Assembly: GCA_022707425.1 (NCBI GenBank)
Contig: JAKJAQ010000005.1
Location: 10,988 to 74,987 of the forward strand
Source: Candidatus Babelota bacterium
GTDB lineage: Bacteria > Babelota > Babeliae > Babelales > JACPOV01
Reading direction: 5' to 3'
Length of the DNA: 64,000 nucleotides
Both the position numbers and the translations under genes were made by a program. The notes beneath the pieces are model-generated. The model did not search any database and was not told the origin of the DNA. It saw only the letters and a list, made by a program, of their open reading frames with translations. Shown in pieces: positions 2,723-54,936 of this stretch. How positions within the stretch are numbered: position 1 is the stretch's first letter; every line of letters begins with the position of its first letter.

Positions 2723-3250
2723 TTATTTTAATTTATCTTGGATTGCTTTGTTGATTGCACGCAATGTAGCATTTTCCTGCTCATAAATGCGGATTTTTTT
2801 TCCCAGTTCTATGATGCGGTCATTAAATTGTTTTGTAGCATCTGCGGTTAATTTTGCAAGATCTTGCTGTTGGACGCGTAATTTTTCTTCAAGTTTGGTA
2901 ATCGTATTTCCAGCTTTTGATTTTGCCAGCGCTTTTAAATTTTTTATTTGTTGATCATTTAATCTCGATTTTATATTTACTTGCGATTTAACGGAATCCC
3001 ATGCTTCTTTAATTTCGTTCTTGGTTTTTTCTAGCGCTGTTCCCATTTGAGCAGTAATTTGAGCAATTACTTTATTTTTCTGATCTATCAAGTTTTTTAG
3101 CTCTTGTGAGTCAGGCATTTTTTTTCGTTCATCTGATTGCATTTTTGCCAGACTTTCAAGGGAAAGGTTTTTAAAATTGGTTGAAGTTTGTTGTGCAAAT
3201 ATATTTGAACTAATGATGAGGAAGATAAGTGAGAGTATTAACTTTTTCAT
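2723..3250 (-). CDS. Hypothetical secreted coiled-coil protein
   Basis: Signal peptide MKKLILSLIFLIISSNIFAQ, followed by K/E/Q-rich heptad-like sequence. I recognise no family. Confidence 0.5.
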   Translation of the reverse strand: MKKLILSLIFLIISSNIFAQQTSTNFKNLSLESLAKMQSDERKKMPDSQELKNLIDQKNKVIAQITAQMGTALEKTKNEIKEAWDSVKSQVNIKSRLNDQQIKNLKALAKSKAGNTITKLEEKLRVQQQDLAKLTADATKQFNDRIIELGKKIRIYEQENATLRAINKAIQDKLK

Positions 3251-3280
3251 AAGAATGTCCTTTGTTCTTTAATTTGTTAA

Positions 3281-4045
3281 TTATGATGGAGATGGATAAT
3301 AATCATAAATAATGTTTAATGTTCTAAAGTCATCGGTTACTGGAAGCGTTACTCGTACATCTTGATATGATGGATGAAACATATCCGAACCTACATAGTC
3401 ATAATTAAGATTGATCGCATTAATTTTGATCGGAGGAGAGCCGGCACCAGAAACATCAATAGTAAAATTGAGTGTTATTTGGTTAAAAATAAGACTATAG
3501 CCAGATGAAGCAGTGAGCAAATTTGATTTTAAAACTTGGCTTGGATTAGTTCTTGCAAGTTGTATCAACAAATTGCGTGGATTGTTAAGATCTAAAATAT
3601 TTTGTAGTAATCGTGCAAGATCAAAGCGCAATGTATAAGGAAGCGGGGCAACTTGTGGTCCGGTACCATTGAAAGTGATTGATGCGCCAATTAGAAATTG
3701 AGATGCATCAACGCTGGAATTAAAATTAGCTGTGACTTGATAATAATTTGCAGTATCAATGGTTGATGAAATAGTGAGTGGTTTACCATTATCAAAAATA
3801 TTAGGATTAAGATTAGCACCAAGAGGAAGTAATCCCGCCGTTAGATCATTATTTCCTAGAACGTTAGCTCCGGAAAGTAATGAAATGCTCGGATAAGCTG
3901 ATAGTGAAAAAAGAGGTACGCTACTACCAGTACCATTTTCTAAGGTAATAGTACCAATACCAAATGAAGGAACGTGGGTAATAGTTATCGCTTGCAGTGA
4001 AGCTTGCATCGCAACCAGAGCTAATAAAATACGTAATAACTTCAT
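3281..4045 (-). CDS. Hypothetical secreted protein, apparently beta-rich
   Basis: The internal start MKLLRILLALVAMQASLQA gives a signal peptide. The rest is N/S/T/G-rich with alternating hydrophobic residues. I recognise no family. Confidence 0.5.
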   Translation of the reverse strand: MKLLRILLALVAMQASLQAITITHVPSFGIGTITLENGTGSSVPLFSLSAYPSISLLSGANVLGNNDLTAGLLPLGANLNPNIFDNGKPLTISSTIDTANYYQVTANFNSSVDASQFLIGASITFNGTGPQVAPLPYTLRFDLARLLQNILDLNNPRNLLIQLARTNPSQVLKSNLLTASSGYSLIFNQITLNFTIDVSGAGSPPIKINAINLNYDYVGSDMFHPSYQDVRVTLPVTDDFRTLNIIYDYYPSPS

Positions 4046-4232
4046 AATTCCCCTTTTTTTGGATCGCAACTGTCATTTTTTAATAAGTATGGCAGATTTA
4101 TGGAACATGGTTCAATATTTTATATTTGTATTTGGTTTGGGGGTGCTGGCATGGTTAAATTGTATTGAGTTTGAACTACTGAAGAATAAAGTTGAAATTT
4201 CGCCAAAAAAGCTCTACTCTATTTCCAATTGT

Positions 4233-4318
4233 GGCGAGATTCCCGAGCGGTCAAAGGGGACGGACTGTAAATCCGTTGGCTTATGTCTTCGTAGGTTCGA
4301 ATCCTACTCTCGCCACCA
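4233..4318 (+). tRNA. tRNA-Tyr (anticodon GUA)
   Basis: Hand-folded cloverleaf: acceptor GGCGAGA/TCTCGCC, anticodon stem ACGGA/TCCGT with loop CTGTAAA, a 13-nt variable arm, T-loop TTCGAAT, and an encoded CCA. Confidence 0.9.
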
Positions 4319-4400
4319 TTTTGATGGCGCAAATAAGCAATAATCCTAGAAATCGATTAAAGTTTTTCTAAAACTTGCTTATGATATCTGAAATGTATGT

Positions 4401-4476
4401 GCGGGAGTAGCTCAATTGGTAGAGCGACAGCCTTCCAAGCTGTAGGTTGCGGGTTCGAGCCCCGTTTCCCGCTCCA
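4401..4476 (+). tRNA. tRNA-Gly (anticodon UCC)
   Basis: Acceptor GCGGGAG/TTCCCGC, anticodon stem ACAGC/GCTGT with loop CTTCCAA, T-loop TTCGAGC, and an encoded CCA. Confidence 0.9.
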
Positions 4477-4486
4477 TTTTAATAAC

Positions 4487-4562
4487 GCTGGCGTAGCTCA
4501 GTTGGTAGAGCAGCTGATTTGTAATCAGCAGGTCGCTGGTTCGAATCCAGTCGCCAGCTCCA
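4487..4562 (+). tRNA. tRNA-Thr (anticodon UGU)
   Basis: Acceptor GCTGGCG/CGCCAGC, anticodon stem GCTGA/TCAGC with loop TTTGTAA, T-loop TTCGAAT, and an encoded CCA. Confidence 0.9.
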
Positions 4563-4644
4563 AAGACAACGCGTAATAGCGCAAAAACGGGTTGTTTTTT
4601 TTCTTTTTTTTATTTAACCTTAATACTAGGTTTGTGAAATATGT

Positions 4645-4719
4645 GCCCACGTAGCTCAGTGGCAGAGCACTTCCTTGGTAAGGAAGAGGTCACCGGTTCA
4701 ATCCCGGTCGCGGGCTCCA
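4645..4719 (+). tRNA. tRNA-Thr (anticodon GGU)
   Basis: Acceptor GCCCACG/CGCGGGC with one A5:C68 mismatch, anticodon stem CTTCC/GGAAG with loop TTGGTAA, T-loop TTCAATC, and an encoded CCA. Confidence 0.85.
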
Positions 4720-4763
4720 AGCAAAAAAATAACGTAGTTTTAACATAAATTTAAGAGAACACT

Positions 4764-4925
4764 ATGGCCAAAAAGAAACGTGTAATTACCGCTCTCGCTT
4801 GTGAAAAATGTAAAGAACGTAATTATTCACAGCTTGTTGCGGGACAAAGATCGGCAGGTTCTTTGCACTTAAATAAGTATTGTTCTCGTTGTCGTAATCA
4901 TACGATGCACAAAGAAACAAAATAG
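4764..4925 (+). CDS. rpmG: 50S ribosomal protein L33
   Basis: This 53-aa ORF is below the track cutoff. It translates to MAKKKRVITALACEKCKERNYSQLVAGQRSAGSLHLNKYCSRCRNHTMHKETK, with the CxxC...CxxC arrangement of Zn-type L33. It sits in the classical position upstream of tRNA-Trp and secE-nusG. Confidence 0.85.
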   Translation: MAKKKRVITALACEKCKERNYSQLVAGQRSAGSLHLNKYCSRCRNHTMHKETK

Positions 4926-4934
4926 ATTCATCGG

Positions 4935-5011
4935 AGGCCAGTAGCTCGAATTGGTAGAGCGGCAGACTCCAAATCTGCGGGTTGGGGGTTCGAGTCCCTC
5001 CTGGCCTGCCA
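4935..5011 (+). tRNA. tRNA-Trp (anticodon CCA)
   Basis: Acceptor AGGCCAG/CTGGCCT, anticodon stem GCAGA/TCTGC with loop CTCCAAA, T-loop TTCGAGT, and an encoded CCA. Confidence 0.9.
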
Positions 5012-5076
5012 ATGAACACGAAGGTGTAGCTGATGAAAAATTTTTTTTTCCATCTCTCATTAAAAGAGGTGTTTGA

Positions 5077-5259
5077 GTGGTAAAAAGCGCGATTCGTTTT
5101 GTACAAGAAGTTCAACTTGAGCTTGCTAAGATTGTATGGCCTAGCTTGAACGAGTTAATTGGATCGGTAATTATTGTACTTATTTTAGTATGTTTTTTTT
5201 CGGTTTATATTGGCTCAATTGATGTGGTATTTTATAAAATTGCTGGGCAAATTTTTTAG
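5077..5259 (+). CDS. secE: Preprotein translocase subunit SecE
   Basis: 60 aa with a single C-terminal TM helix. The block FVQEVQLELAKIVWPS is SecE-like, and the gene lies immediately upstream of nusG. GTG start. Confidence 0.8.
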   Translation: MVKSAIRFVQEVQLELAKIVWPSLNELIGSVIIVLILVCFFSVYIGSIDVVFYKIAGQIF

Positions 5260-5274
5260 GGCATCGGATAATTC

Positions 5275-5793
5275 ATGAAGCGTTGGTATGTTGTTCAAAT
5301 TTATGCTGGCTATGAAGAAGCAATAAAGACTGACCTTTCGCGCCGTATTAAAGAAACTGGGTTGCAAGAACAATTTGGTGAAGTATTAATTCCATCGGCT
5401 AAAGTGAAAAACATGTTTTCTGCGGAAGCAAAAGATGAGCAACAGTTGTTTCCTGGGTATCTTTTGATTGAAATGGAATTGACGCAAGAAACAATGCGTT
5501 TGGTGCAAGCAACGCCACGCGTTATTCGGTTTTTGGGGGGTAAGGAACCGATGCCGATTTCGCAAAAAGAGATTAGTCGCATTGTTTCGCAGATGAAGGG
5601 TGAAGTTGCTCTCGTTCCTAAGAAGAGTGACTTTGTTTCAGGTAGCGAAGTTGATATCTCTGAAGGGCCATTTGCGGGATTTGTTGGAGTAATTGAGAAA
5701 GTTGATGAAGCTAATGAGCGTCTGACATTGATGGTAAGCATCTTTGGAAGAATGACGCCTATTGAGCTTGGGTTTGATCAGGTAAAACGGTAA
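5275..5793 (+). CDS. nusG: Transcription termination/antitermination factor NusG
   Basis: MKRWYVVQIYAGYEE (NGN domain), FPGYLLIEM, and a KOW region GSEVDISEGPFAGFVGVIEKVD. Confidence 0.95.
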   Translation: MKRWYVVQIYAGYEEAIKTDLSRRIKETGLQEQFGEVLIPSAKVKNMFSAEAKDEQQLFPGYLLIEMELTQETMRLVQATPRVIRFLGGKEPMPISQKEISRIVSQMKGEVALVPKKSDFVSGSEVDISEGPFAGFVGVIEKVDEANERLTLMVSIFGRMTPIELGFDQVKR

Positions 5794-5811
5794 TTACGGT
5801 AGGTTTACACT

Positions 5812-6234
5812 ATGGCAAAAACAGTTAAAGCAAAAGTAAAATTAAAAGTTCCTGCGGGAGCAGCAACGCCTGCGCCGCCGGTTGGTTCTGCGCTGGGTCA
5901 GCAAGGTGTTAATATTATGGATTTTTGCAAACAATTTAATGCAAAAACTGCCCATGCGAAAGGTGAGATGTTGCCGGTAATTGTTACCGTTTATATCGAT
6001 AAGTCATTTGACTTTGTAGTCAAAACGCCTGAAACATCAGCACTTCTAAAGAAAAAAATTAAATTGGAAAAAGGTTCCTCCAAACCTAATACGGATAAAA
6101 TTGGCAAATTAACATGGAAAGATATTGAAGATATCGCATCGGTAAAAATGCCAGATCTCAATGCGCTTGATTTGGAGCAGGCAAAAAAGATTGTAGCTGG
6201 TACTGCTCGAAGTATGGGAATTGATATCGTTTGA
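5812..6234 (+). CDS. rplK: 50S ribosomal protein L11
   Basis: [30 protein letters not shown] is a hallmark L11 sequence. Confidence 0.95.
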
Positions 6235-6250
6235 TTGATCGGGGTTTGAT

Positions 6251-6919
6251 ATGGCAACGCATGGTAAAAAATTTAGAGCGGCAAGTGAAAAAATGAATAA
6301 AGAAACACTCTATTCATTCAATGAAGGACTTGCACAAGTTAAAAATTTAGCATTTGCAAAGTTTGACGAATCGGTAGATGTTCATGTCAATCTTGGCATT
6401 GATGCATCTAAGGGTGAGCAAGCAGTTCGCGGATCGGTAGTTTTGCCTAATAGCATCGGCAAAAAGGTTCGCATTATTGTTTTTGCAAAGGGTGATCAGG
6501 CTGAAGCTGCACGAAATGCTGGTGCTGACTTTGTAGGCGCTGAAGATCTTGTTGAAAAAATCGAGGGAGGTTGGCTCGATTTTGAATATGCAGTTGCAAC
6601 ACCCGATTTAATGGGCATGGTAGGTAAGCTAGCAAAAATTTTGGGGCCTCGTGGTTTATTGCCTAACAAAAAAGTAGGTACTGTTACTTTCGATGTTGCT
6701 TCTGTAGTAAATGATTTGAAAAAAGGTCGCCAGTTTTTCAAAAATGATAAAAGTGGTTTGATTCATTTTTCAATCGGACGAGTTTCATTTGATGTAGCAA
6801 AGTTACAAGAGAATTTGGTTGCATTTTTGCGAGCACTCTCTACTACCAAGCCTTCAACATCAAAAGGCAAATTTATTAGAAAGTTGACGGTTGCTTCCAC
6901 TATGGGAGTTGGCAGATGA
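6251..6919 (+). CDS. rplA: 50S ribosomal protein L1
   Basis: FDESVDVHVNLGID...RGSVVLP, GPRGLLPNKKVGTV; synteny after rplK. Confidence 0.95.
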   Translation: MATHGKKFRAASEKMNKETLYSFNEGLAQVKNLAFAKFDESVDVHVNLGIDASKGEQAVRGSVVLPNSIGKKVRIIVFAKGDQAEAARNAGADFVGAEDLVEKIEGGWLDFEYAVATPDLMGMVGKLAKILGPRGLLPNKKVGTVTFDVASVVNDLKKGRQFFKNDKSGLIHFSIGRVSFDVAKLQENLVAFLRALSTTKPSTSKGKFIRKLTVASTMGVGR

Positions 6920-6956
6920 TATAGTAAACGCTTAGTGATCGGATAAAGGTATAACA

Positions 6957-7481
6957 ATGAATCGTCAAAATAAAGAACAAGTCGTCCAAGCCTTGCAAAA
7001 CGAGTTGAAGACAAGTCAGGCTTCGTTTTTGGTTGGCTATAAAGGAATGACGGTTGCACAACTGACAGATCTAAGACGTAAATTGCATGATGTTAATGGA
7101 TCCTTTCAAGTGGCAAAAGTTACCTTAATGGAACGTGCTATTAATCAAACGCCATCAGTTGATGGATTGCAATCTTATTTGGGTGACCAAATTGCGCTGG
7201 TTTTTGCTCATAAAGAGTCGCCAGTTGTAGCAAAAATTTTATTTACCTTTGCAAAAAGTAACGAGCAGCTCAAGTTAATTGCTGGATGCTTTGAGCAAAC
7301 GGTGTTTGCACCTGATAAAATCAAAGTGCTTGCTTCGTTGCCGCCTCGAGAAATTTTGCTCGCGCAAGTATGTGGTACATTAAAAGCGCCTACGCATAAA
7401 CTGGTGATGATGCTCAACCTTATGCGCGTGCGTTTGTTCTATGTGTTGCAGCAAGCGGCTGAAAAGAAAAAAGCTGCGTGA
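6957..7481 (+). CDS. rplJ: 50S ribosomal protein L10
   Basis: L10-like N-terminus (KEQVVQALQNELKTSQASFLVGYKGMTVAQLTDLRRKL); position between rplA and rplL. Confidence 0.9.
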   Translation: MNRQNKEQVVQALQNELKTSQASFLVGYKGMTVAQLTDLRRKLHDVNGSFQVAKVTLMERAINQTPSVDGLQSYLGDQIALVFAHKESPVVAKILFTFAKSNEQLKLIAGCFEQTVFAPDKIKVLASLPPREILLAQVCGTLKAPTHKLVMMLNLMRVRLFYVLQQAAEKKKAA

Positions 7482-16479: not shown

Positions 16480-16554
16480 AGGCGCGTAGCTCAGTGGCAG
16501 AGCATTGCTTTGACGTAGCAGGGGTCAGCGGTTCAATCCCGCTCGCGCCTACCA
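16480..16554 (+). tRNA. tRNA-Val (anticodon GAC)
   Basis: Acceptor AGGCGCG/CGCGCCT, anticodon stem TTGCT/AGCAG with loop TTGACGT, T-loop TTCAATC, and an encoded CCA. Confidence 0.9.
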
Positions 16555-45639: not shown

Positions 45640-46209
45640 ATGGAATTGGGAGCAATGTTATTACCAGCATTTATGTTGCAAATGTTGGGTGAAGAGCCGC
45701 CACAAAAATCGATCAATAAAACAAAATCAGAGATTATTGCAACTACGCAAATCGACTATATGAAATTCGATATCATGCGGGGAAAAAAAATAAAAGATAA
45801 GCGTGAAGATTGGATGACTGAAGATATTGGATTGGTAACATCGGCCAGTAAGCATCGAATATTATTGCTTAATAATAAAAAATGTGGTTTTGCCCGTTAT
45901 CGAACCATTCAATCGAGCAACCGTCTTGGCAGTTATGCATTCGTAGATAGATTTTGTATTGCATTTTGGCATTGCAAGGATAAAGAAGAAATAAATACTA
46001 CCTATGAAGCATTGTATCAGGCAATTCGCAAAGATTTAAAATTCCCTCGTTCGGTTGAACTTATTATTCCACAGACAGATGTCCTTACTCAAAATTGGTG
46101 CCGAGCCCGTGGATTTAAAAAAATGTATAAATATAATGAGAAGCCATTAGTCAGTTATCTTATGTCATTTCGTAATTCTGCATGTATAGATGACTCAGAA
46201 AGTGACTGA
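45640..46209 (+). CDS. Hypothetical protein, possibly a degenerate GNAT fold
   Basis: Only the C-terminal NWCRARGFKK and the overall size resemble a GNAT; no Q/RxxGxG/A motif is visible. The 3' end overlaps the convergent cryptochrome-like gene by 55 nt. Confidence 0.35.
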   Translation: MELGAMLLPAFMLQMLGEEPPQKSINKTKSEIIATTQIDYMKFDIMRGKKIKDKREDWMTEDIGLVTSASKHRILLLNNKKCGFARYRTIQSSNRLGSYAFVDRFCIAFWHCKDKEEINTTYEALYQAIRKDLKFPRSVELIIPQTDVLTQNWCRARGFKKMYKYNEKPLVSYLMSFRNSACIDDSESD

Positions 46210-47654
46210 GCGATTTTGATATATTTCTTAAGTTGTGGTGGCGTTAAACGCTTTAACTGTTGATAGGCAAGAATCATTCGCGAATTGCTCGAGAGCTTTT
46301 TTTTGTTGCAATACAAGAAGTGCCAATACAATGCATTCCATTGCTCACACCATGCAGCTTTTTTAAAATGTGTGCTCATGGTTTGAATATAATGCGATGT
46401 TGATATATATGGTTTGGTCATCATTAAACCACCATCAGCAAATTGACTCATACCAAAAATATTAGGTATCATCACCCAATCGTAAGCATCAATAAAAAGC
46501 TCCATAAACCATTGATGAACGGCTGAAGGTTTGGTTTGACGCAAAAGCATATAATTACCCAAAATCATAAGCCGTTCGATATGATGAGCGTATCCATAAG
46601 AGAGTATTTTCTTTATTGTGCTATCAATAGGTTCAATGCCGGTTGATCCATCCCACCACGCAGAAGATAGTTTCTGAGTATGATTGAAAAAATTGCTGTT
46701 TTGCTGTATTTCTCCATGAACTTGGTAGATGCCACGGACATATTCTCGCCATTGAAGAATTTGCCGGACAAATCCTTCAATGGAATTGATAGGGACTTTA
46801 TTTGTTGCACCGTATTTTACTGCTTTTTCAATGATAACATGAGGTATTAATAATCCTATATTAAGTAATGGTGAAAGAACTGAATGAAATAAAAATGGTT
46901 GTTCGTGGTTGATTGCGTCTTGATATTCACCAAATGAGCTAAACCTATTTTTTAAAAAATCATCAAACCATCGATCTGCATCGTTAAAAGTTACCGGATA
47001 ACAAAAATGATCAATAGTTCCAGGATTTTTCGGAAAATGTTTTTGCACATAATTGATCCCTTCGCGTACATATTTATTTTTTTTTGGCGTCCATAAAGGT
47101 GGAATGATCATATTTGGTGGGATCTTTTTTCGATTTTCTGTATCAAAGGTCCATTTGCCGCCGATTGGTTTTTCATTATGAGTTAAAATTGCAAATTGTT
47201 TGCGCTGTTTGACATAAAACGGATACATTCGAAAAGTTTTTTTGGCGCTAAATTGCTCCTGTACCTGAGTAGATGAAAGCATAAATGCAGGAGTATCATA
47301 TTTTTCTGTTTTAATACTGAGAATGCGACATATTTTTTTGAGTTGCCTTTCTACCGTGGTATCCACCGGGTCGATGTAAAGCAACTTGTCGATTTTTTGA
47401 TGTTTAAGTAGTTTTTCTAGCGACTCATTAAAGGTACAATAGGTGATAATATATTTTTTCTTTTTAAGATGGTCTTTATAAAATTGCATTGATGCGCGGT
47501 GCAACACAATTTTTGCTTTATGAAATGTGAATCGTGTAAAAAAATGCGGCGCTTCCCACATGATCATTGGAATATTTTTTTCGAATACCTGATGATATTC
47601 AAAAAGTTGATGCGGAAAAATTAACGCAGCTTCACAAAGTTGTTTTTTTTTCAT
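46155..47654 (-). CDS. Cryptochrome/photolyase-family protein of the FeS-BCP / (6-4) photolyase PhrB-CryB type (COG3046-like)
   Basis: N-terminus LIFPHQLF...FHKAKIVLHRASMQFYKDHL, then YAHHIERLMILGNYMLL and AYDWVMIPNIFGMSQFADGG..TKPYISTSHYI match that family as I remember it. About 500 aa. Confidence 0.8.
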   Translation of the reverse strand: MKKKQLCEAALIFPHQLFEYHQVFEKNIPMIMWEAPHFFTRFTFHKAKIVLHRASMQFYKDHLKKKKYIITYCTFNESLEKLLKHQKIDKLLYIDPVDTTVERQLKKICRILSIKTEKYDTPAFMLSSTQVQEQFSAKKTFRMYPFYVKQRKQFAILTHNEKPIGGKWTFDTENRKKIPPNMIIPPLWTPKKNKYVREGINYVQKHFPKNPGTIDHFCYPVTFNDADRWFDDFLKNRFSSFGEYQDAINHEQPFLFHSVLSPLLNIGLLIPHVIIEKAVKYGATNKVPINSIEGFVRQILQWREYVRGIYQVHGEIQQNSNFFNHTQKLSSAWWDGSTGIEPIDSTIKKILSYGYAHHIERLMILGNYMLLRQTKPSAVHQWFMELFIDAYDWVMIPNIFGMSQFADGGLMMTKPYISTSHYIQTMSTHFKKAAWCEQWNALYWHFLYCNKKKLSSNSRMILAYQQLKRLTPPQLKKYIKIAQSLSESSIHAELRNDIR

Positions 47655-49036
47655 GGCTTTGCATTTCGGTAGATGGTTTTTGCGCGTGCACTTTCTTTTT
47701 GATGATCAACCATTGGAGAAGGGTAATGAGTTGTATGTTGTGTAGATTGCTTTTGCCAAGCGTGAATAATTTCGGGAGAATATTTTTTTAATTCGGGAAC
47801 CCATTTTTTGATGTAAGAACAAGTGGGATCAAATTTTTTTTGTTGTAACCAGGGATTAAAAATACGAAAATAGGGTTGTGCATCGCAACCAGTCGATGCG
47901 CTCCACTGCCAATTGCCATTATTCACTGCAGGGTCATAATCCACCAACTGTTGAGCAAAATACTGTTCACCCAAGCGCCAATCAATATGCAAATCTTTGG
48001 TTAAAAACGATGCAACAATCATGCGCACACGATTATGCATAAAACCGGTAGCATTTAATTGCCTCATGCCAGCATCAACGATGGGGAACCCAGTTGTTCC
48101 AGTACACCAGCGCATAAAATCTTTTTTGTTAGGATTCCATGGAAGCGAATCATATTTTTTGTGAAACGCATGTCCAAATACAAATGGTGAATGATACGCT
48201 ACGTGTGTAAAAAAATCACGCCAATACAATTGACGTAACAAAGGATGCTGAATCCCAAGTATTTTACTCATTGCGTTATGCACTGTTCGTACCGATACGG
48301 TGCCAAATTTTAAATGCGCAGAAAGATTCGTGGTAGGAATGGATGGAAAATCGCGTTGTTTTTGGTAGTTAATATATGTTTTAAGCGATTTCAATAGAGT
48401 ACGCGCATTTCTGCTACCACCATGCACATGAATTTGGGTATTAATTTTCGGCATTATTTTTTTAAACACATCTTTAGCACGCTGAGATTCATTAATTTTT
48501 TTTTGATAAAAATCAATAGCCGGTAAAATATCTGGCTTTTTTATAGGATGGTAAAGTGATGCTTTTAAAAATGGCGTAAAAATGCTATAAGGAGTGCCAT
48601 CTTGTTTAAGAATTTCTTCAGGCTCATTGAGTAATGCATCACCATATTGTTCAAATATCGCTTTATAGTGAATACATAGTTTTTTTATTTTTTCATCACG
48701 TTTGATGCTGAAAGGTGTATAATCACGATTCGTGAAAATGGCATCAATGGTGATTTTTTTTAGCAGGTGTTCAACAACGCGATCAGTTGTTCCATAAAAA
48801 AGATAGAGACTGCCATTTTTTTTCTTGAGTTGTTCATTAAGATCTTGAATTGATTCAATCATAAATTGAATTGCGTTGCTACTGCGAAATGGATTGTTTG
48901 GGCCAATTTGTTGTGTATCAAAAATGAAACAAGGAAGTATGCAATGAGCTTTTTTTGCTGCAGCAATAAGAGCGGTATTATCTTCGAGTCGAAGATCACG
49001 ACGAAAAATAAAGAGTGCTGTTTGATATTGTTTCAT
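47651..49036 (-). CDS. phr: Deoxyribodipyrimidine (CPD) photolyase
   Basis: ALFIFRRDLRLEDNTAL, LYWRDFF, TGFPIVDAGMRQL..TGFMHNRVRMIVASFL, and DYDPAVNNGNWQWSASTG.D..PYFRIFNP. Confidence 0.93.
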   Translation of the reverse strand: MKQYQTALFIFRRDLRLEDNTALIAAAKKAHCILPCFIFDTQQIGPNNPFRSSNAIQFMIESIQDLNEQLKKKNGSLYLFYGTTDRVVEHLLKKITIDAIFTNRDYTPFSIKRDEKIKKLCIHYKAIFEQYGDALLNEPEEILKQDGTPYSIFTPFLKASLYHPIKKPDILPAIDFYQKKINESQRAKDVFKKIMPKINTQIHVHGGSRNARTLLKSLKTYINYQKQRDFPSIPTTNLSAHLKFGTVSVRTVHNAMSKILGIQHPLLRQLYWRDFFTHVAYHSPFVFGHAFHKKYDSLPWNPNKKDFMRWCTGTTGFPIVDAGMRQLNATGFMHNRVRMIVASFLTKDLHIDWRLGEQYFAQQLVDYDPAVNNGNWQWSASTGCDAQPYFRIFNPWLQQKKFDPTCSYIKKWVPELKKYSPEIIHAWQKQSTQHTTHYPSPMVDHQKESARAKTIYRNAKP

Positions 49037-49533: not shown

Positions 49534-51096
49534 ATGAAATTTAGAGAAATTTTTATTGCGTTTACATTGGCAGTGATTACTGCAGCAGCTTTACAGTTTT
49601 TTTTGGGTCGTTATACAACTTCCGACAATGGTGAGATTACACGGTCGGGACAACGATTTAGTGCACCAAAATCTACTGATATGCAAATGTATAAACCGTT
49701 AAACTTGGAAGTAGATTTTACTGATATTAAAAGTACCAAGCAGCCGATTGTTACTGTGCTCAAAACAGATCATGCACTGTATGAATTTACTACTGATGGT
49801 GCTGCATTGAGTCGTTTAGAATTTACGCGCAATTATGGTGGCAAAGAGCAATTAATTAGCACTGTTTTCCCACCTGCAGCAACTGATCGCGAACGAAGCT
49901 GTTTTCTTGTTGCACTTGATCAACAAACGCCCTATGTTTTTGAATTTGTCGATCAACAAGAAAATGATCAAATGTATTCGCTCAGCTATAAGGCATCCAT
50001 AAATAATGGCGCATTACTAAAAAAATTTAATGTGTATAAACATGAACATCGCATCGATTTGGAAGTAGCTCTTCAATTGGCGCAGGGCGCTCCAGCAAAC
50101 CAAGCACGCATTTTCATTCCAGCACCACTTGTTCCTGAGCTTGCAGGAGAAGATGCAGTGACTGGTCTTGCAAATGATGATCGCAATAAAATTTTAATTT
50201 TGCCACGTACTGCTGAAACTACTTCATCTTATTGGTCCCGACCGACACTTTTTGGAGCACAAGATCGCTATTTTGTGCATGCGATGGTGAACGATCAACA
50301 ACAATTTACACAACGTGGTTATTTTAAAGCGATTGATCTGGAAGGTTGGTTTGCTATTCTTGAAGGTCCTCAAGTTACAACCGATAGCTCATGGAAGTTG
50401 ACTTTTTTTATGGGACCAAAAGAAGATCATGCAATTAATCAAGTTGATAGTCGCTTGGAACAAACGCTTAATTATGGTTTCTTCTCATTTATCTCAAAAC
50501 CGCTCTCAAAATTAATGTTGCGCGCGCTCGATTTGATTTATGGTGTTGTGCATAACTATGGTTGGGCAATTATTATTTTGACCATTTTGCTTAAATTGCT
50601 TTTGTTACCATTCACTTGGCGTGGTGAACAAAGTATGAAGTTACGTTTAGAATATCAAAAGAAGCTTTCGTATATTGAGTCAAAATATAAACATGATAAA
50701 GAAACATTGGCACATGAACGTGCAGAATTAGTGCGCAAATATGGAATGCCAGGAATGGCAGGATGTTTGCCGGTACTGTTACAATTGCCAATATTTTGGG
50801 CATTGAGCATTGTTCTTGCTAACTCAATTGAACTGTATAAAGCGCCGTTCTTGTGGATACCAGATTTATCTGCGCGTGATCCGTATTATATTTTGCCTGT
50901 TCTGGTCGCAATAGGAATGGTTTTACACGCACCGGCAATTGCTGATACAAAACAACGGCTTTCATCAGTTGCAATGGCATTGTTAATCGCAGCGCTTATT
51001 TCAAGTTTCTCAAGTGGTTTAGCTCTCTTTACCGTAGTGAGTACATTCTTGGGTGTTGCACAAGCACAACTTATGAAAGTTATGAAGCATGATTGA
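49534..51096 (+). CDS. yidC: Membrane protein insertase YidC, long form with a periplasmic P1 domain
   Basis: An N-terminal TM helix, a periplasmic region of about 300 aa, then the 60-kDa insertase core (GWAIIILTILLKLLLLPF...QKK....PGMAGCLPVLLQLPIF.AL). I prefer the ATG at 49534. Confidence 0.92.
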   Translation: MKFREIFIAFTLAVITAAALQFFLGRYTTSDNGEITRSGQRFSAPKSTDMQMYKPLNLEVDFTDIKSTKQPIVTVLKTDHALYEFTTDGAALSRLEFTRNYGGKEQLISTVFPPAATDRERSCFLVALDQQTPYVFEFVDQQENDQMYSLSYKASINNGALLKKFNVYKHEHRIDLEVALQLAQGAPANQARIFIPAPLVPELAGEDAVTGLANDDRNKILILPRTAETTSSYWSRPTLFGAQDRYFVHAMVNDQQQFTQRGYFKAIDLEGWFAILEGPQVTTDSSWKLTFFMGPKEDHAINQVDSRLEQTLNYGFFSFISKPLSKLMLRALDLIYGVVHNYGWAIIILTILLKLLLLPFTWRGEQSMKLRLEYQKKLSYIESKYKHDKETLAHERAELVRKYGMPGMAGCLPVLLQLPIFWALSIVLANSIELYKAPFLWIPDLSARDPYYILPVLVAIGMVLHAPAIADTKQRLSSVAMALLIAALISSFSSGLALFTVVSTFLGVAQAQLMKVMKHD

Positions 51097-51688
51097 TCAA
51101 GTGCCAACACTTGCGCAGTTAGTTAAACAATTACAACAAATTCCCTATTTGGCATCTAAAAATGTATACCGAGTTGCGCATTATTTTTTGATGCTTGATC
51201 AAGCTCGTGTGCAGCAACTCTGCAAAATTATTATTGATGCAAAAATGCAAGTTATAGCATGTCAAACGTGTTTTGTGTGGAAAGAAAAAGAGCGTACTTG
51301 TCCATTTTGTGATTCAAAGCGAAGAGATATAACAGTTATTTGTGTCGTTGAAACATGGCAAGAATTGATGGCTATTGAAAAAACCGGTGGCTATCAAGGG
51401 TTGTATCATATTCTTGGTGGTGCAATTTGCCCACTAAATGGAATCGGGCCAGAAAATTTAACGATTGATCCATTGATAAAGAGAATTAATGAGTCGGTCC
51501 GTGAAATAATTTTAGCAACCAATCAGACACCTGAAGGTGAAGCTACCGCTTCGTATATTGCTTCAAAATTGAAAGATCGATCGCTTAAAATTTCATGTTT
51601 GGCGCGTGGTATTCCAGTAGGATCAACACTTGAATATATGGATCGCGTAACTGTATTTAAAGCGCTATCTGAACGACGACCGTTTTAG
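51089..51688 (+). CDS. recR: Recombination protein RecR
   Basis: An HhH N-terminus, the C4 zinc finger CQTCFVWKEKERTCPFC, and a Toprim region VICVVE...IILATN.T.EGEATA.Y. It overlaps yidC by 8 nt. Confidence 0.93.
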   Translation: MIDQVPTLAQLVKQLQQIPYLASKNVYRVAHYFLMLDQARVQQLCKIIIDAKMQVIACQTCFVWKEKERTCPFCDSKRRDITVICVVETWQELMAIEKTGGYQGLYHILGGAICPLNGIGPENLTIDPLIKRINESVREIILATNQTPEGEATASYIASKLKDRSLKISCLARGIPVGSTLEYMDRVTVFKALSERRPF

Positions 51689-51689
51689 C

Positions 51690-51887
51690 TTATTCAGGAA
51701 AATCGGCACATTCACGTACTGAACCGTCCTGTCCAGATAGTAAACAACCGTTACATTGGATGCAACATTCTCGATCTACAAATCTACCTTGTTTACAACA
51801 TTCTTCACAATTTACTGCTTGCAAGGCAGGGATATTTACTATAAAAATTGTCGTCAAAAATAATAATAGTGCTGTTAATTTCTTCAT
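51690..51887 (-). CDS. Secreted cysteine-rich mini-protein (about 41-aa mature region, 8 Cys)
   Basis: An AGGAG Shine-Dalgarno sequence lies 8 nt upstream. The signal peptide MKKLTALLLFLTTIFIVNIPALQA is followed by VNCEECCKQGRFVDRECCIQCNGCLLSGQDGSVRECADFPE. Confidence 0.55.
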   Translation of the reverse strand: MKKLTALLLFLTTIFIVNIPALQAVNCEECCKQGRFVDRECCIQCNGCLLSGQDGSVRECADFPE

Positions 51888-51944
51888 GAGCAGCTCTCCT
51901 TTTTTTAGGTTATTCTTTATCGTAATAAATTGAGCATGAAAAAA

Positions 51945-53129
51945 TCAACAATTTTGATGGTCAATTTTGGTCTTTTTTGCGATCTGGTCGATGTTTGGGT
52001 AATTGAACTCGGTTGTTGTTCCTGCCAGAAGGAGTGACGGTTGATTTTCGCGTGAGTTGTGTTGTTCATGTTCTATGAATGCTTGCGAGATTTTTTTTTC
52101 GTATTCAGTTTCAGGATAGATAGCAATAATATTAAATACTTCTTTAATAAATTCGTTAATGGTTCCGCTTTCTTTTTCGAGTGATGTTGATTCACACAAT
52201 TCTAATTTTCTTTTGTTACTGACAATTGAGGGTTCGTAATTTTTTATGAGTGGTTCATACGAATTAGACACAGTGAATGTTCGCATGCTGGTAAGAATAG
52301 TGCAAGAGATGGGAAGTTTTTGAAACTGTGTTATGCGGCATGCGGGACTATAACATGAATCAATTGCTACTAAACAATGTGGATGGTATCTATTGAAATG
52401 ATCTATTATTTTTGAAATATTAGTTTGCATGAGTCCTGCAATGCGCGGTATTTCACTTGAGGTTTCATTTCCATGTCCCGTGAAATAGATTTTTAAAGGG
52501 TGTTGTTGCGGTGAAATGATAAACCTATCTAAGTTATTTATCCATTCGTTCGTATTATCCGAAAGTTTATAATACAGCGGAGCGAGCATGTGTTTAAATT
52601 CATGCGTGTTTATGACAGTTTGAGGTATGCCACATTTTTTAATATAAACGAGACCGATGTTTGAATCGTACGCGGTCCATTCATCTTGTTTAAAAGCAAG
52701 AACAAGATTTAATTTTTTTCTTATTTTTTTTGACTTAATTGCAGATTTTGTTTGATTTGTTGTCTCATCAACTGAAAACGGCTTGTAATTTTCTATTTTA
52801 ATTTGTGAAGAGGGTTGCGTAATTGCATATCGTTCATAAAGATACCGTTTTGAATTTAAATTTTTTGTGGCAAATCGTTGCCAAAGACTATAGGGAACAA
52901 AAATATGCGCATAATTTTTGCGGAGTAACGCATGAAGGAAATCATAATAAATTGCCTTTTTTTTATCTTGGGTTTCATAATCGATAATTTTTGTTGTCAT
53001 TTGACTGGTACTGATAAAAAATGCGATCGAATTATGACCACCATGATTCATACCATGAAGGGGTAGAACGTGAAAAAATATGATGTTCAAAAAATAATGA
53101 CAACTAAGAATGGCGTATTTTTTTTTCAT
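51945..53129 (-). CDS. Hypothetical secreted protein with a caspase-like (clan CD) His/Cys dyad pattern
   Basis: I trimmed the ORF to MKKKYAILSCHYFLNIIFF (hydrophobic N-terminus). KIYFTGHG (His codon at 52473-52475) is followed 40 residues later by LVAIDSCYS (Cys codon at 52353-52355). Each motif follows a hydrophobic strand, as in caspase/metacaspase folds. Confidence 0.4.
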   Translation of the reverse strand: MKKKYAILSCHYFLNIIFFHVLPLHGMNHGGHNSIAFFISTSQMTTKIIDYETQDKKKAIYYDFLHALLRKNYAHIFVPYSLWQRFATKNLNSKRYLYERYAITQPSSQIKIENYKPFSVDETTNQTKSAIKSKKIRKKLNLVLAFKQDEWTAYDSNIGLVYIKKCGIPQTVINTHEFKHMLAPLYYKLSDNTNEWINNLDRFIISPQQHPLKIYFTGHGNETSSEIPRIAGLMQTNISKIIDHFNRYHPHCLVAIDSCYSPACRITQFQKLPISCTILTSMRTFTVSNSYEPLIKNYEPSIVSNKRKLELCESTSLEKESGTINEFIKEVFNIIAIYPETEYEKKISQAFIEHEQHNSRENQPSLLLAGTTTEFNYPNIDQIAKKTKIDHQNC

Positions 53130-53184
53130 GAATTCAGTACACTTAATAATGATGTTTTGAATAATAATGCTCACAAGGAATTCT

Positions 53185-54516
53185 ATGCCGATTGTTGAAA
53201 AACATGATACGGTTTTTTTTAAAAATCGTCGAGAACAGTTAGTAGATTTGATTAAGAAACAATATCCCGATGCAAACAACGGTATTGTTTTATTGTTTGG
53301 TTCGTTTGAGTCACATGCCGTATTTAAACAAGAACGTTCATTTTTTTATCTGACCGGCATAGAAGAACCAGCAACTGCGTTAATGATTGATCTTGAAAAT
53401 AAAAAAACAACGCTGTTTGTCCCCAATTATGCGCAAGAGCGTGCAAAATGGGCATCTTCGGCGATATTTGCTGAACAAAAAGAACGATTTGGCTTTGATG
53501 AACTCATGTATTTAGGACAAGAATGCAAAGGATATCAATGCCATCCTTTTTTTACCAAAGAACAATATCACAATCTACTGGTGATCATTGATGAATGCGT
53601 TAAGAATAAGAAACCAATTTACACACTTAATCCGCAAACAGTTTCAGGTTATGTGGAGCAACGATTTATATTGCAAAGAATTGCGCAATTAATTTCAGGT
53701 TTTAATTCACAATTAATTGATATTTCGCCGCTTGTAGCTCGTTTACGTCGCACAAAATCTCGTCAAGAAATTGAATATATTTACAAAGCAATTGATGTAA
53801 CTATTGATGCACATGATGCAGTTGCACGCGCAATAAGTGCTGATAAGAAAGAATATGAAATTCAAGCTTTGCTTGAGTATATGTTTACGGTACGCGGCTG
53901 TTCGATTGCATTTCCAAGCATTGTAGCGTCTGGAAAAAATGGCACTGTTTTACATTACCATCAAAACAATGCAACGCTACAAAATGGTGAATTAGTGGTT
54001 GTTGATATTGGTGCAGAATATAATTATTATTGCGCAGATTTAACCCGTACATTTCCCGTTTCAGGTACATTTTCAAAGCGACAACGTGAACTTTATATGA
54101 TTGTTCTTGAAACGCAAGAACATATTGCCCAGCTAGCACAGCCAGGTATGTGGATTTCTAATAAAGAGTATCCTGAAAAATCGTTGATTCATTTGGCGCA
54201 CAAATTTTTAGACAAGTATGGGTATGGCAACTATTTTGTTCATGGTATTGGACATTTCTTGGGTCTGGATGTGCACGATGTTGGAGATTATTCGCAACCA
54301 TTACAACCAAATGATGTAATTACTATTGAACCAGGTATTTATATTCCTGAAGAAAAGATAGGAATTCGCATTGAGGATAATTATTGGATTGTAGAAGGCG
54401 AAGCGATCTGCTTAAGTGAGGATTTGCCCAAAGCACCAGATGATATTGAATTAGCAATGGCAAATACTTCGAATGAAGAAATAAATAACGAAGAGATTCA
54501 AGAACAAGAAAATTAA
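53185..54516 (+). CDS. pepP: Xaa-Pro aminopeptidase (M24B)
   Basis: VVDIGAEYNYYCADLTRTFPV, HGIGHFLGLDVHD, IEPGIYIPE and IRIEDN metal-ligand blocks. The ATG at 53185 follows AAGGA. The C-terminal tail is acidic. Confidence 0.9.
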   Translation: MPIVEKHDTVFFKNRREQLVDLIKKQYPDANNGIVLLFGSFESHAVFKQERSFFYLTGIEEPATALMIDLENKKTTLFVPNYAQERAKWASSAIFAEQKERFGFDELMYLGQECKGYQCHPFFTKEQYHNLLVIIDECVKNKKPIYTLNPQTVSGYVEQRFILQRIAQLISGFNSQLIDISPLVARLRRTKSRQEIEYIYKAIDVTIDAHDAVARAISADKKEYEIQALLEYMFTVRGCSIAFPSIVASGKNGTVLHYHQNNATLQNGELVVVDIGAEYNYYCADLTRTFPVSGTFSKRQRELYMIVLETQEHIAQLAQPGMWISNKEYPEKSLIHLAHKFLDKYGYGNYFVHGIGHFLGLDVHDVGDYSQPLQPNDVITIEPGIYIPEEKIGIRIEDNYWIVEGEAICLSEDLPKAPDDIELAMANTSNEEINNEEIQEQEN

Positions 54517-54576: not shown

Positions 54577-54936
54577 TTAGCAGTGTGCTGCCTTCATTTT
54601 TTCAAAAAATGCAATTGCGTCTTTAGAGCCAAGTGCTAAAACAGCAAAACCAAGTGCTAATCCAGCACCAAATATTTTGCCACTTGTTTTTTTACTTGTA
54701 ATAAGTTTATAAATTCCCATTATTGAACCAGCTGCACCAATAGTTGCAATTGCTGCTACGCGGGGATCATTATCATTTGGTGTAAACCATTTATGCGAAA
54801 TATAATTTTTTGCACTTTCAAGTTTTTCTAATTGTTGTTCTGAAAGAAAATCTTTGAAAGATGCAGATTCTGCTGGTTGATTGTGGACCAATGCACTACC
54901 GAGTAATAAGGCCATTGATAAGTGTCGAATATTCAT
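54577..54936 (-). CDS. Hypothetical small secreted/membrane protein
   Basis: A signal-peptide-like N-terminus and two Gly/Ala-rich hydrophobic segments. I recognise no family. Confidence 0.45.
   Translation of the reverse strand: MNIRHLSMALLLGSALVHNQPAESASFKDFLSEQQLEKLESAKNYISHKWFTPNDNDPRVAAIATIGAAGSIMGIYKLITSKKTSGKIFGAGLALGFAVLALGSKDAIAFFEKMKAAHC

Follow-up and report, generated by a model that had tools for sequence, protein, structure and literature searches.

The stretch of DNA analysed here (the window, 64,000 nucleotides) comes from the Candidatus Babelota bacterium assembly GCA_022707425.1, contig JAKJAQ010000005.1, positions 10,988 to 74,987 of the forward strand. RpoB encoded in the window shares 86% identity with that of Ca. 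Babeliales SW_41 and 60-76% with those of dozens of Dependentiae/TM6 metagenome-assembled genomes. We analyzed two adjacent genes on the minus strand, encoding a 394-aa protein, termed X394, and a 65-aa cysteine-rich mini-protein, termed the peptide. The pair sits between a divergent gene for an M24 Xaa-Pro aminopeptidase and a convergent recR gene. A sequence-only reading of this DNA had proposed a two-gene module, in which a secreted protein with a caspase-like His/Cys dyad is followed by a secreted mini-protein with eight Cys. Both open reading frames (ORFs), the AGGAG motif ahead of the smaller one and the 57-nt gap between them were found as claimed, and their coordinates were confirmed. 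The features of the two genes are as follows.

51945..53129, minus strand: X394 gene (394 aa; ATG at 53129, stop at 51945), with syntenic orthologues at 52% identity, distant relatives and a fold model
53052..53129, minus strand: probable signal peptide of X394 for the general secretory (Sec) pathway, residues 1-26 (MKKKYAILSCHYFLNIIFFHVLPLHG, then M), with a putative cleavage site at its end
52473..52475, minus strand: codon of His219, the predicted catalytic His, in PLKIYFTGHGNE; G-H-G at the end of strand 212-218
52353..52355, minus strand: codon of Cys259, the predicted nucleophile, in HCLVAIDSCYSP; (S/T)-C-(Y/F) just past strand 253-257
51888..51944, minus strand: spacer between the X394 and peptide genes, 57 nt, holding the AGGAG motif; TTGATT at 51948..51943 (overlapping the X394 stop) and TACGAT at 51924..51919, 18 nt apart
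51900..51896, minus strand: AGGAG Shine-Dalgarno sequence of the peptide gene, 8 nt ahead of the ATG
51690..51887, minus strand: gene of the 65-aa mini-protein, from the ATG at 51887 to the stop, 57 nt downstream of X394
51816..51887, minus strand: signal peptide of the mini-protein, residues 1-24 (...LQA|VN)
51693..51815, minus strand: 41-aa mature peptide VNCEECCKQGRFVDRECCIQCNGCLLSGQDGSVRECADFPE with 8 invariant Cys

The start of X394 was placed at the ATG. A longer, TTG-initiated ORF from 53279 was rejected, since it would run into the divergent M24 gene, and an equivalent MKK marks the start of the orthologues. X394 begins with a basic n-region followed by a hydrophobic segment, modelled as a helix (residues 3-20) by AlphaFold2 (AF2). 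An N-terminal hydrophobic 10-mer (Kyte-Doolittle value of at least 2) was present in 31 of 37 family members, and the 6 exceptions look truncated. The junction (H/K/Q)-(G/A/S)|M-(E/Q) recurs in the family alignment, and its (G/A/S)|M-(E/Q) part suggests cleavage by signal peptidase, which in X394 would fall near G26|M27.

Relatives of X394 were sought in large protein collections. A word-indexed search of 5.8 billion proteins returned two orthologue clusters at 52-53% identity and nothing else. Exhaustive phmmer comparison with 1.84 billion representatives added 24 further relatives (E 3e-15 to 1e-3). A profile search contributed 11 additional ones; those named in their source are all "hypothetical" and none has a Pfam domain. 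The family thereby comprises ~40 sequence clusters and is without a Pfam or NCBIfam model. Its sole taxonomically placed relative, P0037, belongs to the Ca. Dependentiae OFTM133 assembly. In this assembly (locus L097, JAJCZC010000001.1) hmmsearch located three X394-family paralogues within 4.4 kb, at 2949-4130, 4259-5224 and 5965-7317. The run (2949-7317) is a local family expansion, interrupted by a gene for a haloacid dehalogenase (HAD) hydrolase. A contig scan of the GTDB representatives with the single X394 protein revealed no relative. Compared with Pfam, NCBIfam, PADLOC and PHROGs, X394 gave only sub-threshold matches, none of them informative besides Peptidase_C13 and Peptidase_C80, and a Pfam scan of 26 family members yielded no recurrent family. 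Among PDB sequences, phmmer and profile searches returned nothing relevant, the lone match being a tetratricopeptide repeat protein at E 0.45. No description of the family was found in the literature searched, and by the models queried the family is new.

Conservation was analyzed in an alignment of 37 X394-family sequences, which are ~20% identical to the query. Only three residues besides the initiator Met are invariant (37/37), namely W196, H219 and C259; D155, T156, G159, G218 and G232 are nearly so. The two putative catalytic residues are spaced by exactly 40 residues. Gly flanks H219 at position -1 in 36 and at position +1 in 33 of the 37 sequences. C259 is preceded by Ser or Thr in every sequence, and position -2 is polar (Q/D/E/N/S). 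Position -2 of the Cys contributes to the S1 pocket in caspases (QAC) and legumain (EAC). The motifs can be written as (V/I/F)-x-(I/L/F)-x-G-H-G and (L/V/I)-x-(I/V)-x-(S/T)-C, each following a hydrophobic strand. Peptidases of clan CD are recognized by a His that precedes the Cys, each after a hydrophobic block, with Gly next to the His and a small residue before the Cys (PMC4357240, PMC12445089). The 37 sequences of the X394 family show this arrangement, with the strands taken from the AF2 model. The hydrophobic N-terminus and the (S/T)GHG and D-(S/A)-C motifs 40 residues apart had been picked out by the sequence-only reading. These were confirmed, and the conservation of H219 and C259 in homologues, which it had asked for, held throughout the alignment.

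The AF2 model of X394, built on a 26-sequence alignment, had a predicted local distance difference test (pLDDT) score of 84 and a predicted template modelling (pTM) score of 0.83. In this model H219 directly follows strand 212-218 and C259 lies one residue after strand 253-257. In a Foldseek search against the PDB, active legumain (4awb) ranked first (E 2.4e-3, prob 0.99), followed by PIGK of the glycosylphosphatidylinositol (GPI) transamidase, further legumains and caspase-7. Ranks 1-19 were all clan CD proteins, and caspase-3 and drICE were also among the matches. Against BFVD, a C14 caspase-domain protein of a giant virus (Dasosvirus) ranked first (prob 0.90) and a metacaspase second. When the family profile was aligned with human legumain by hhalign, IYFTGHG was placed on IYFTDHG (H148) and IDSC on IEAC (C189). 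X394 also carries a ~100-residue insertion (roughly 105-205), which has its own invariant YDT..GLYY and Trp motifs and is lacking in known clan CD structures. A catalytic core of the clan CD type is very probable for X394.

Family models gave no assignment within the clan. For C13, none of the other 25 family members matched at E<=1, and no legumain was retrieved by phmmer or profile search against the PDB. For Peptidase_C14, no match at E<=1 was found in the 26 members, and the active site reads x-S-C-(Y/F)-x, with no QACxG pentapeptide. Neither X394 nor any of the other 25 family members matched Peptidase_C11 in Pfam. By the sequence criteria testable here, X394 is outside all eight MEROPS families of the clan (C11, C13, C14, C25, C50, C80, C84 and C123; PMC12445089). 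Members of the Dependentiae parasitize protists, on which they depend as hosts, and their exported proteomes are very large. In the cultured member Chromulinavorax destructans, 44% of the coding sequences have a signal peptide, and the secreted peptidases reportedly include clan CD enzymes of family C11 (PMC6561590). A secreted clan CD protease in Dependentiae is thus unsurprising in kind, because C11 enzymes have already been reported there. Components of type II secretion are conserved across TM6 (PMC4776705). A caspase or CHAT system of anti-phage defence was rejected on the basis of the missing PADLOC match and the housekeeping gene context.

The mature peptide has the Cys framework C-x2-CC-x9-CC-x2-C-x2-C-x11-C. 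The eight Cys had been read correctly from the sequence, while the two longer spacings had been given as x10 and x12, each one residue too many. The leader starts with MKK and has a hydrophobic core; it is of the Sec type, without a twin-arginine motif or a lipobox. Compared with two orthologues, the gene shows 20 synonymous and 9 non-synonymous differences, and the ratio of non-synonymous to synonymous substitution rates (dN/dS) is 0.08; between these two orthologues it is 0.074. In 7 sequence variants 8/8 Cys are kept, with replacements mostly in the leader, and the same 8 Cys are kept in two relatives (L098 and L099) of 47-56% full-length identity. At every locus of the clade to which the window belongs (L001-L008) the peptide gene was found. 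From these substitution patterns the 65-aa ORF is a real gene, in agreement with the earlier proposal of an exported, disulfide-rich mini-protein, and its product is likely to be exported and to contain up to 4 disulfides. The mature peptide is acidic (8 D/E versus 4 K/R), and Asn/Asp residues in INC... and C-A-D-F/Y-P are conserved. A single-sequence AF2 model of the mature peptide (pLDDT 66) contains two short helices bearing the CxxCC and CCxxC motifs.

The peptide had no match in Pfam (E<=10) or NCBIfam, nothing above threshold in PADLOC or PHROGs, and none in the PDB by sequence. A Foldseek search, with the low-confidence model (pLDDT 66) as query, gave no match, and the word-indexed search returned only the peptide's own 90% cluster. 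Specifically, no match to known Cys-rich families (knottins/cyclotides, STa, OmcA and SCIFF-type precursors of ribosomally synthesized and post-translationally modified peptides, RiPPs) was obtained in Pfam, NCBIfam, the PDB or Foldseek. No radical S-adenosylmethionine (SAM) or other maturase gene lies near the peptide gene. A RiPP precursor was rejected for this reason and because the leader is of the classical Sec type, and a lipoprotein was rejected owing to the missing lipobox. The peptide family is a clade-restricted orphan without detectable relatives of known function.

The question whether the two genes are linked was addressed by comparing loci. The two diverged relatives of the peptide were detected in a metagenome scan with the peptide alignment.

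L098 (Ga0209342_10053673), 206-427: peptide homologue, 73-aa precursor ...EDCAATGTCINCEECCKAGRFVSRECCTQCNGCTMWSDEGTRECADFPS, convergent with a recR gene (product 82% identical to RecR of the window)
L099 (Ga0105046_10002467), 2908-3135: peptide homologue, 75-aa precursor ...NQCNTQDCAYTKINCEECCKAKTAVSPECCAACNNCTLYDDGGRSGCKDFPA, flanked by an M24 gene on one side and, on the other, by the genes of an ankyrin-repeat protein, RecR (66% identical) and YidC

In L098 and L099 the peptide gene occupies the same slot between M24 and recR, and the 170-200 nt upstream of it are AT-rich, non-coding and without X394. X-family genes in five other contexts (L009, L092, L094, L096 and L097) are adjoined by no peptide homologue and no exported Cys-rich ORF. 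A search for small Cys-rich ORFs beside distant X-family genes returned random overlapping ORFs only. X394 and the peptide co-occur solely inside one fully syntenic clade (L001-L008), and adjacency within such a clade therefore provides no evidence of a functional link. The genes also differ in their rate of divergence. Between the window and L005/L002, identity is 52% for X394, compared to 88-91% for the peptide, 95% for RecR, 90% for YidC and 85% for M24. No other gene of the neighbourhood has diverged as far as X394 (dN 0.39 for the same comparison). L005 and L002, whose comparison is less saturated, gave a dN/dS of 0.29 for X394 and of 0.03-0.17 for all neighbours. The spacer (57-60 nt) is conserved among the loci carrying X394 and contains a weak promoter-like pair, TTG(A/C)TT-17/18-TAC(G/A)(A/C)T. 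The first box, TTGATT, has an aligned counterpart in L098, the locus without X394. We infer a promoter function of this pair from the sequence only.

Two observations on the diverged loci concern the peptide and its site. The homologues in L098 and L099 have an N-terminal extension with two more Cys (C-x5-C, C-x4-C), which brings the mature part to 10 Cys, so that the 8-Cys core domain allows extension by one more presumed disulfide. In L099, the peptide gene is separated from recR by an inserted gene for an ankyrin-repeat protein with an N-terminal leader (3216-4235, minus strand; Pfam Ank, E 4e-9). The interval therefore seems to accept lineage-specific exported genes; exported or effector-like genes restricted to one lineage appear to have landed between M24 and recR more than once.

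We consider it probable, with a good deal of room for doubt, that two real genes were brought next to each other and most likely function independently, X394 being an exported clan CD enzyme and the peptide gene the older of the two. An insertion of X394 is the simplest explanation, because it requires one gain as opposed to two losses. Several observations weigh against this interpretation. For the clan CD fold, an alpha/beta/alpha sandwich around the central beta-sheet of caspases with the dyad on loops that follow beta3 and beta4, the Foldseek matches of X394 had E 2e-3 to 3e-2, template modelling (TM) scores of 0.2-0.33 and a root-mean-square deviation of 7-8 Å over ~175 columns. The Pfam matches remained sub-threshold for both Peptidase_C13 (PF01650; 14.8 bits versus a gathering score of 22.8, E 0.021, residues 195-264) and Peptidase_C80 (13.4 bits versus a cut-off of 23.8, E 0.097). 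The hhalign comparison with legumain, made with one target sequence, had E 0.028 and a probability of 1.7%. The three closest orthologues of X394 (P0002, P0003 and P0011) carry G-H-A instead of G-H-G. For the diverged peptide loci the comparison covered 3.4 kb (L098) and 6.1 kb (L099), so that an X-family gene may lie elsewhere in these genomes. Within the window's clade, X394 and the peptide gene point in the same direction at a distance of 57-60 nt, and no terminator-like hairpin intervenes, so that read-through is possible. Co-transcription may thus occur and with it some functional link gained after the insertion, though we regard such a link as rather improbable. The scores of X394 are weak yet consistent, and the assignment to clan CD, already proposed by the sequence-only reading together with a Foldseek check, is therefore supported by the sub-threshold C13 and C80 matches, the motif pairing in hhalign, the PDB and BFVD matches and the invariant His and Cys. 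X394 might also use a caspase-like alpha/beta scaffold without being a hydrolytic protease, as a PIGK-like transamidase or ligase or another thiol enzyme, or it might have another fold altogether. PIGK, the second-best PDB match, is a transamidase, the TM-scores are low and no family model reaches its threshold. Known clan CD enzymes have nothing that corresponds to the insertion at ~105-205 with its invariant YDT..GLYY and W196. Such a role is made unlikely by the clan CD signature itself, i.e. an invariant His followed 40 residues on by an invariant Cys, each after a hydrophobic strand and with small flanking residues (PMC4357240, PMC12445089), and by the top 19 PDB and top two viral matches, all of which belong to the clan.

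The proposal of a functional two-gene module did not find support. In such a module the exported clan CD enzyme would mature, trim or ligate the peptide, or the peptide would act as an inhibitor, or both would be co-secreted partners. The arrangement on one strand, 57 nt apart and without a terminator-like site in between, is retained at every locus of the window's clade. C13 legumains and asparaginyl endopeptidases (AEPs), the nearest structural relatives of X394, process and cyclize disulfide-rich plant peptides (PMC8600085), and the Asn/Asp residues of the peptide are conserved. Against a module speak the peptide gene of L098 and L099, which occupies this slot without X394, the X-family paralogues in five other contexts without such a neighbour, the discordant divergence (52% versus 88-91%) and the strong Shine-Dalgarno sequence and conserved promoter-like spacer of the peptide gene itself. 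The whole clade is syntenic, so the retained adjacency carries little weight. When co-occurrence across genomes was checked, as had been suggested along with the module, the genes were found apart, and together in that one clade only; we give the module little credence. A bolder variant is that the inserted legumain-like enzyme was recruited for the neighbouring 8-Cys peptide, which it might trim or transpeptidate at the Asn of V/I-N-C or the Asp of C-A-D-F/Y-P, or that a protease and its dedicated knottin-like inhibitor are directed against the protist host. It is a long shot, and if true, the recruited enzyme and its peptide would be a bacterial counterpart of AEP/cyclotide maturation in plants. 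As to the chemistry of the peptide, it could be a metal-binding protein with CxxC/CxxCxxC ligands, or a disulfide-cross-linked envelope component like the small Cys-rich outer-membrane proteins of Chlamydia. This concerns the peptide only and is compatible with two independent genes. C-x2-CC and CC-x2-C-x2-C resemble the spacings of metal ligands, the peptide is acidic, the organism is host-dependent like Chlamydia, and the AF2 fold (pLDDT 66) is of low confidence. A Sec leader without a twin-arginine motif, in contrast, implies export in an unfolded, cofactor-free state. The lipobox is missing, and there is no Pfam match at E<=10, a search which would cover Chlamydia OmcA or ferredoxin-type models. 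The Cys number stays even (8, and 10 in the mature parts of L098 and L099), as expected for paired disulfides. We regard this alternative as improbable.

On the favoured interpretation of two independent genes, X394 would leave the cytoplasm via Sec, with its leader cut near G26|M27. The catalytic dyad would consist of H219 and C259, each located where a central beta-strand has its C-terminus, and X394 would be a cysteine endopeptidase with specificity for P1; transpeptidase activity, as in C13 relatives, is also conceivable. The specificity for P1 would be set by the loops after strand 1, before Cys259 (Asp257 here) and after the following strand. The enzyme would act outside the cytoplasm, in the periplasm, at the cell surface or, via the type II secretion typical of the phylum, in a host compartment, and its targets would be envelope or host proteins. 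The fast divergence of X394 and the local and tandem paralogues fit a role in host interaction or host digestion. The peptide would be exported separately and fold with up to four disulfides. Its gene would be ancestral at the site and is probably transcribed from its own promoter, and X394 was probably inserted between the M24 gene and this older gene in the ancestor of the window's clade. The reality of both genes, the membership of X394 in its family, the invariant residues, the similarity of the predicted fold and the distribution over loci are shown here, whereas export, catalysis, disulfides, separate transcription and the direction of the insertion are inferred.

The genes flanking the pair are:

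53167/53185..54516, divergent from X394: gene of the M24 Xaa-Pro aminopeptidase
51089..51688, plus strand: recR, convergent with the peptide gene; then yidC, a merR-type gene and photolyase genes

For M24, orthologues of 443 aa suggest the later start, at Met7 (53185), over 53167. The divergent gap between X394 and M24 is 37 nt with the start at 53167 and 55 nt with the start at 53185, and therefore one of the promoters, if not both, must be located within coding sequence. The stops of recR (51688, plus strand) and of the peptide gene (51690, minus strand) converge at a distance of 1 nt, leaving no space for an intergenic terminator. This gap is 2 nt in the orthologous loci and 4 nt in L098. 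Beyond M24 lies a 119-aa ORF (54577-54936, minus strand), whose product has a leader at the N-terminus, a hydrophobic segment at the C-terminus and no Pfam match. It is the second-fastest evolving gene of the neighbourhood (64% identity to L005). At the equivalent place, L099 has an ORF of comparable size (865-1287), also with an N-terminal leader and no Pfam match. On the other side, a photolyase gene (47651-49036, minus strand) is followed by a DPRP/cryptochrome-like gene (46155-47654, minus strand; Pfam DPRP, E 7e-54). A gene for a merR-type regulator precedes the two, and this light-repair module is retained in a reduced, host-dependent genome. The window further encodes rpoB/rpoC and fusA/tuf and a tRNA cluster. 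Five tRNA genes lie at 4233-5008, ~3 kb upstream of rpoB, and another one at 16480-16551, directly after rpoC; both have the look of ordinary housekeeping content. The GC content is 38% on average in the window and 32-36% in the genes under study. A horizontal island was rejected, given that these values are close.

Dependentiae are widespread and almost uncultured parasites of protists, and their exported proteomes consist mostly of orphan proteins. Here, one orphan family of this phylum (~40 clusters, with tandem paralogues in one genome) can be assigned, at the strength given above, to the clan of caspases and legumains. The named dyad H219/C259 offers a testable biochemical handle on host attack or remodelling. 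Clan CD would gain a family that escapes all current Pfam and NCBIfam models. A second, independent and strongly conserved exported orphan is the 8-Cys mini-protein. The apparent operon is best regarded as a clade-specific juxtaposition, an example which guards against over-interpretation of a reading from sequence alone.

Among known systems, caspases and metacaspases (C14) appear to share with the X394 model the alpha/beta sandwich in which a His ends one strand and a Cys the next. X394 differs from them in having no C14 match and no QACxG, and there is no evidence for an inter-subunit linker or dimerization. The C11 peptidases of C. destructans and RARP-2 of Rickettsia (C123) resemble X394 in the intracellular lifestyle of their bearers and in the proposed use of an exported clan CD protease against host structures (PMC6561590, PMC12445089, PMC7259798). 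X394 has no Peptidase_C11 match. By description, RARP-2 is type IV-secreted and has ankyrin repeats (PMC12445089, PMC7259798), whereas X394 has a Sec leader and no repeats. For the peptide, a lead is given by the pre-pro-peptide of E. coli STa and by Chlamydia OmcA, which are precursors of ~65-90 aa in which a leader forms the N-terminus and a region rich in CC and CxxC the C-terminus. The peptide has no sequence or profile similarity to either of them (Pfam E<=10, NCBIfam, PDB); OmcA has a lipobox, which the peptide lacks, and STa differs in Cys framework and length.

To our knowledge, the AEPs of plants with their cyclotide precursors are the only known system with a comparable pairing. Like the locus described here, plant AEPs and cyclotide/knottin precursors combine a legumain-like enzyme with a small multi-disulfide peptide carrying a conserved Asn/Asp (PMC8600085). 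The plant genes are unlinked, the peptide is a 6-Cys cystine knot and the enzyme a true C13 member. The pairing in the window is clade-specific and dispensable, and the peptide matches no cyclotide/knottin family. Legumain/AEP and PIGK of family C13 remain the closest structural relatives of X394 itself. They share only 12-15% identity with it over ~175 columns, with TM-scores of 0.2-0.3. Relative to legumain, X394 has the ~100-residue insertion and Ser, not Ala, before the Cys, and no S1 residues of legumain are identifiable in it. In common, they provide the best structural matches (4awb, 7wld and 4n6o), and C13 is the better of the two sub-threshold Pfam matches. The motifs of X394 and legumain correspond (IYFTGHG to IYFTDHG, IDSC to IEAC), with a polar residue at -2. 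Legumain and PIGK are extracytoplasmic enzymes made with an N-terminal signal peptide, as predicted for X394.

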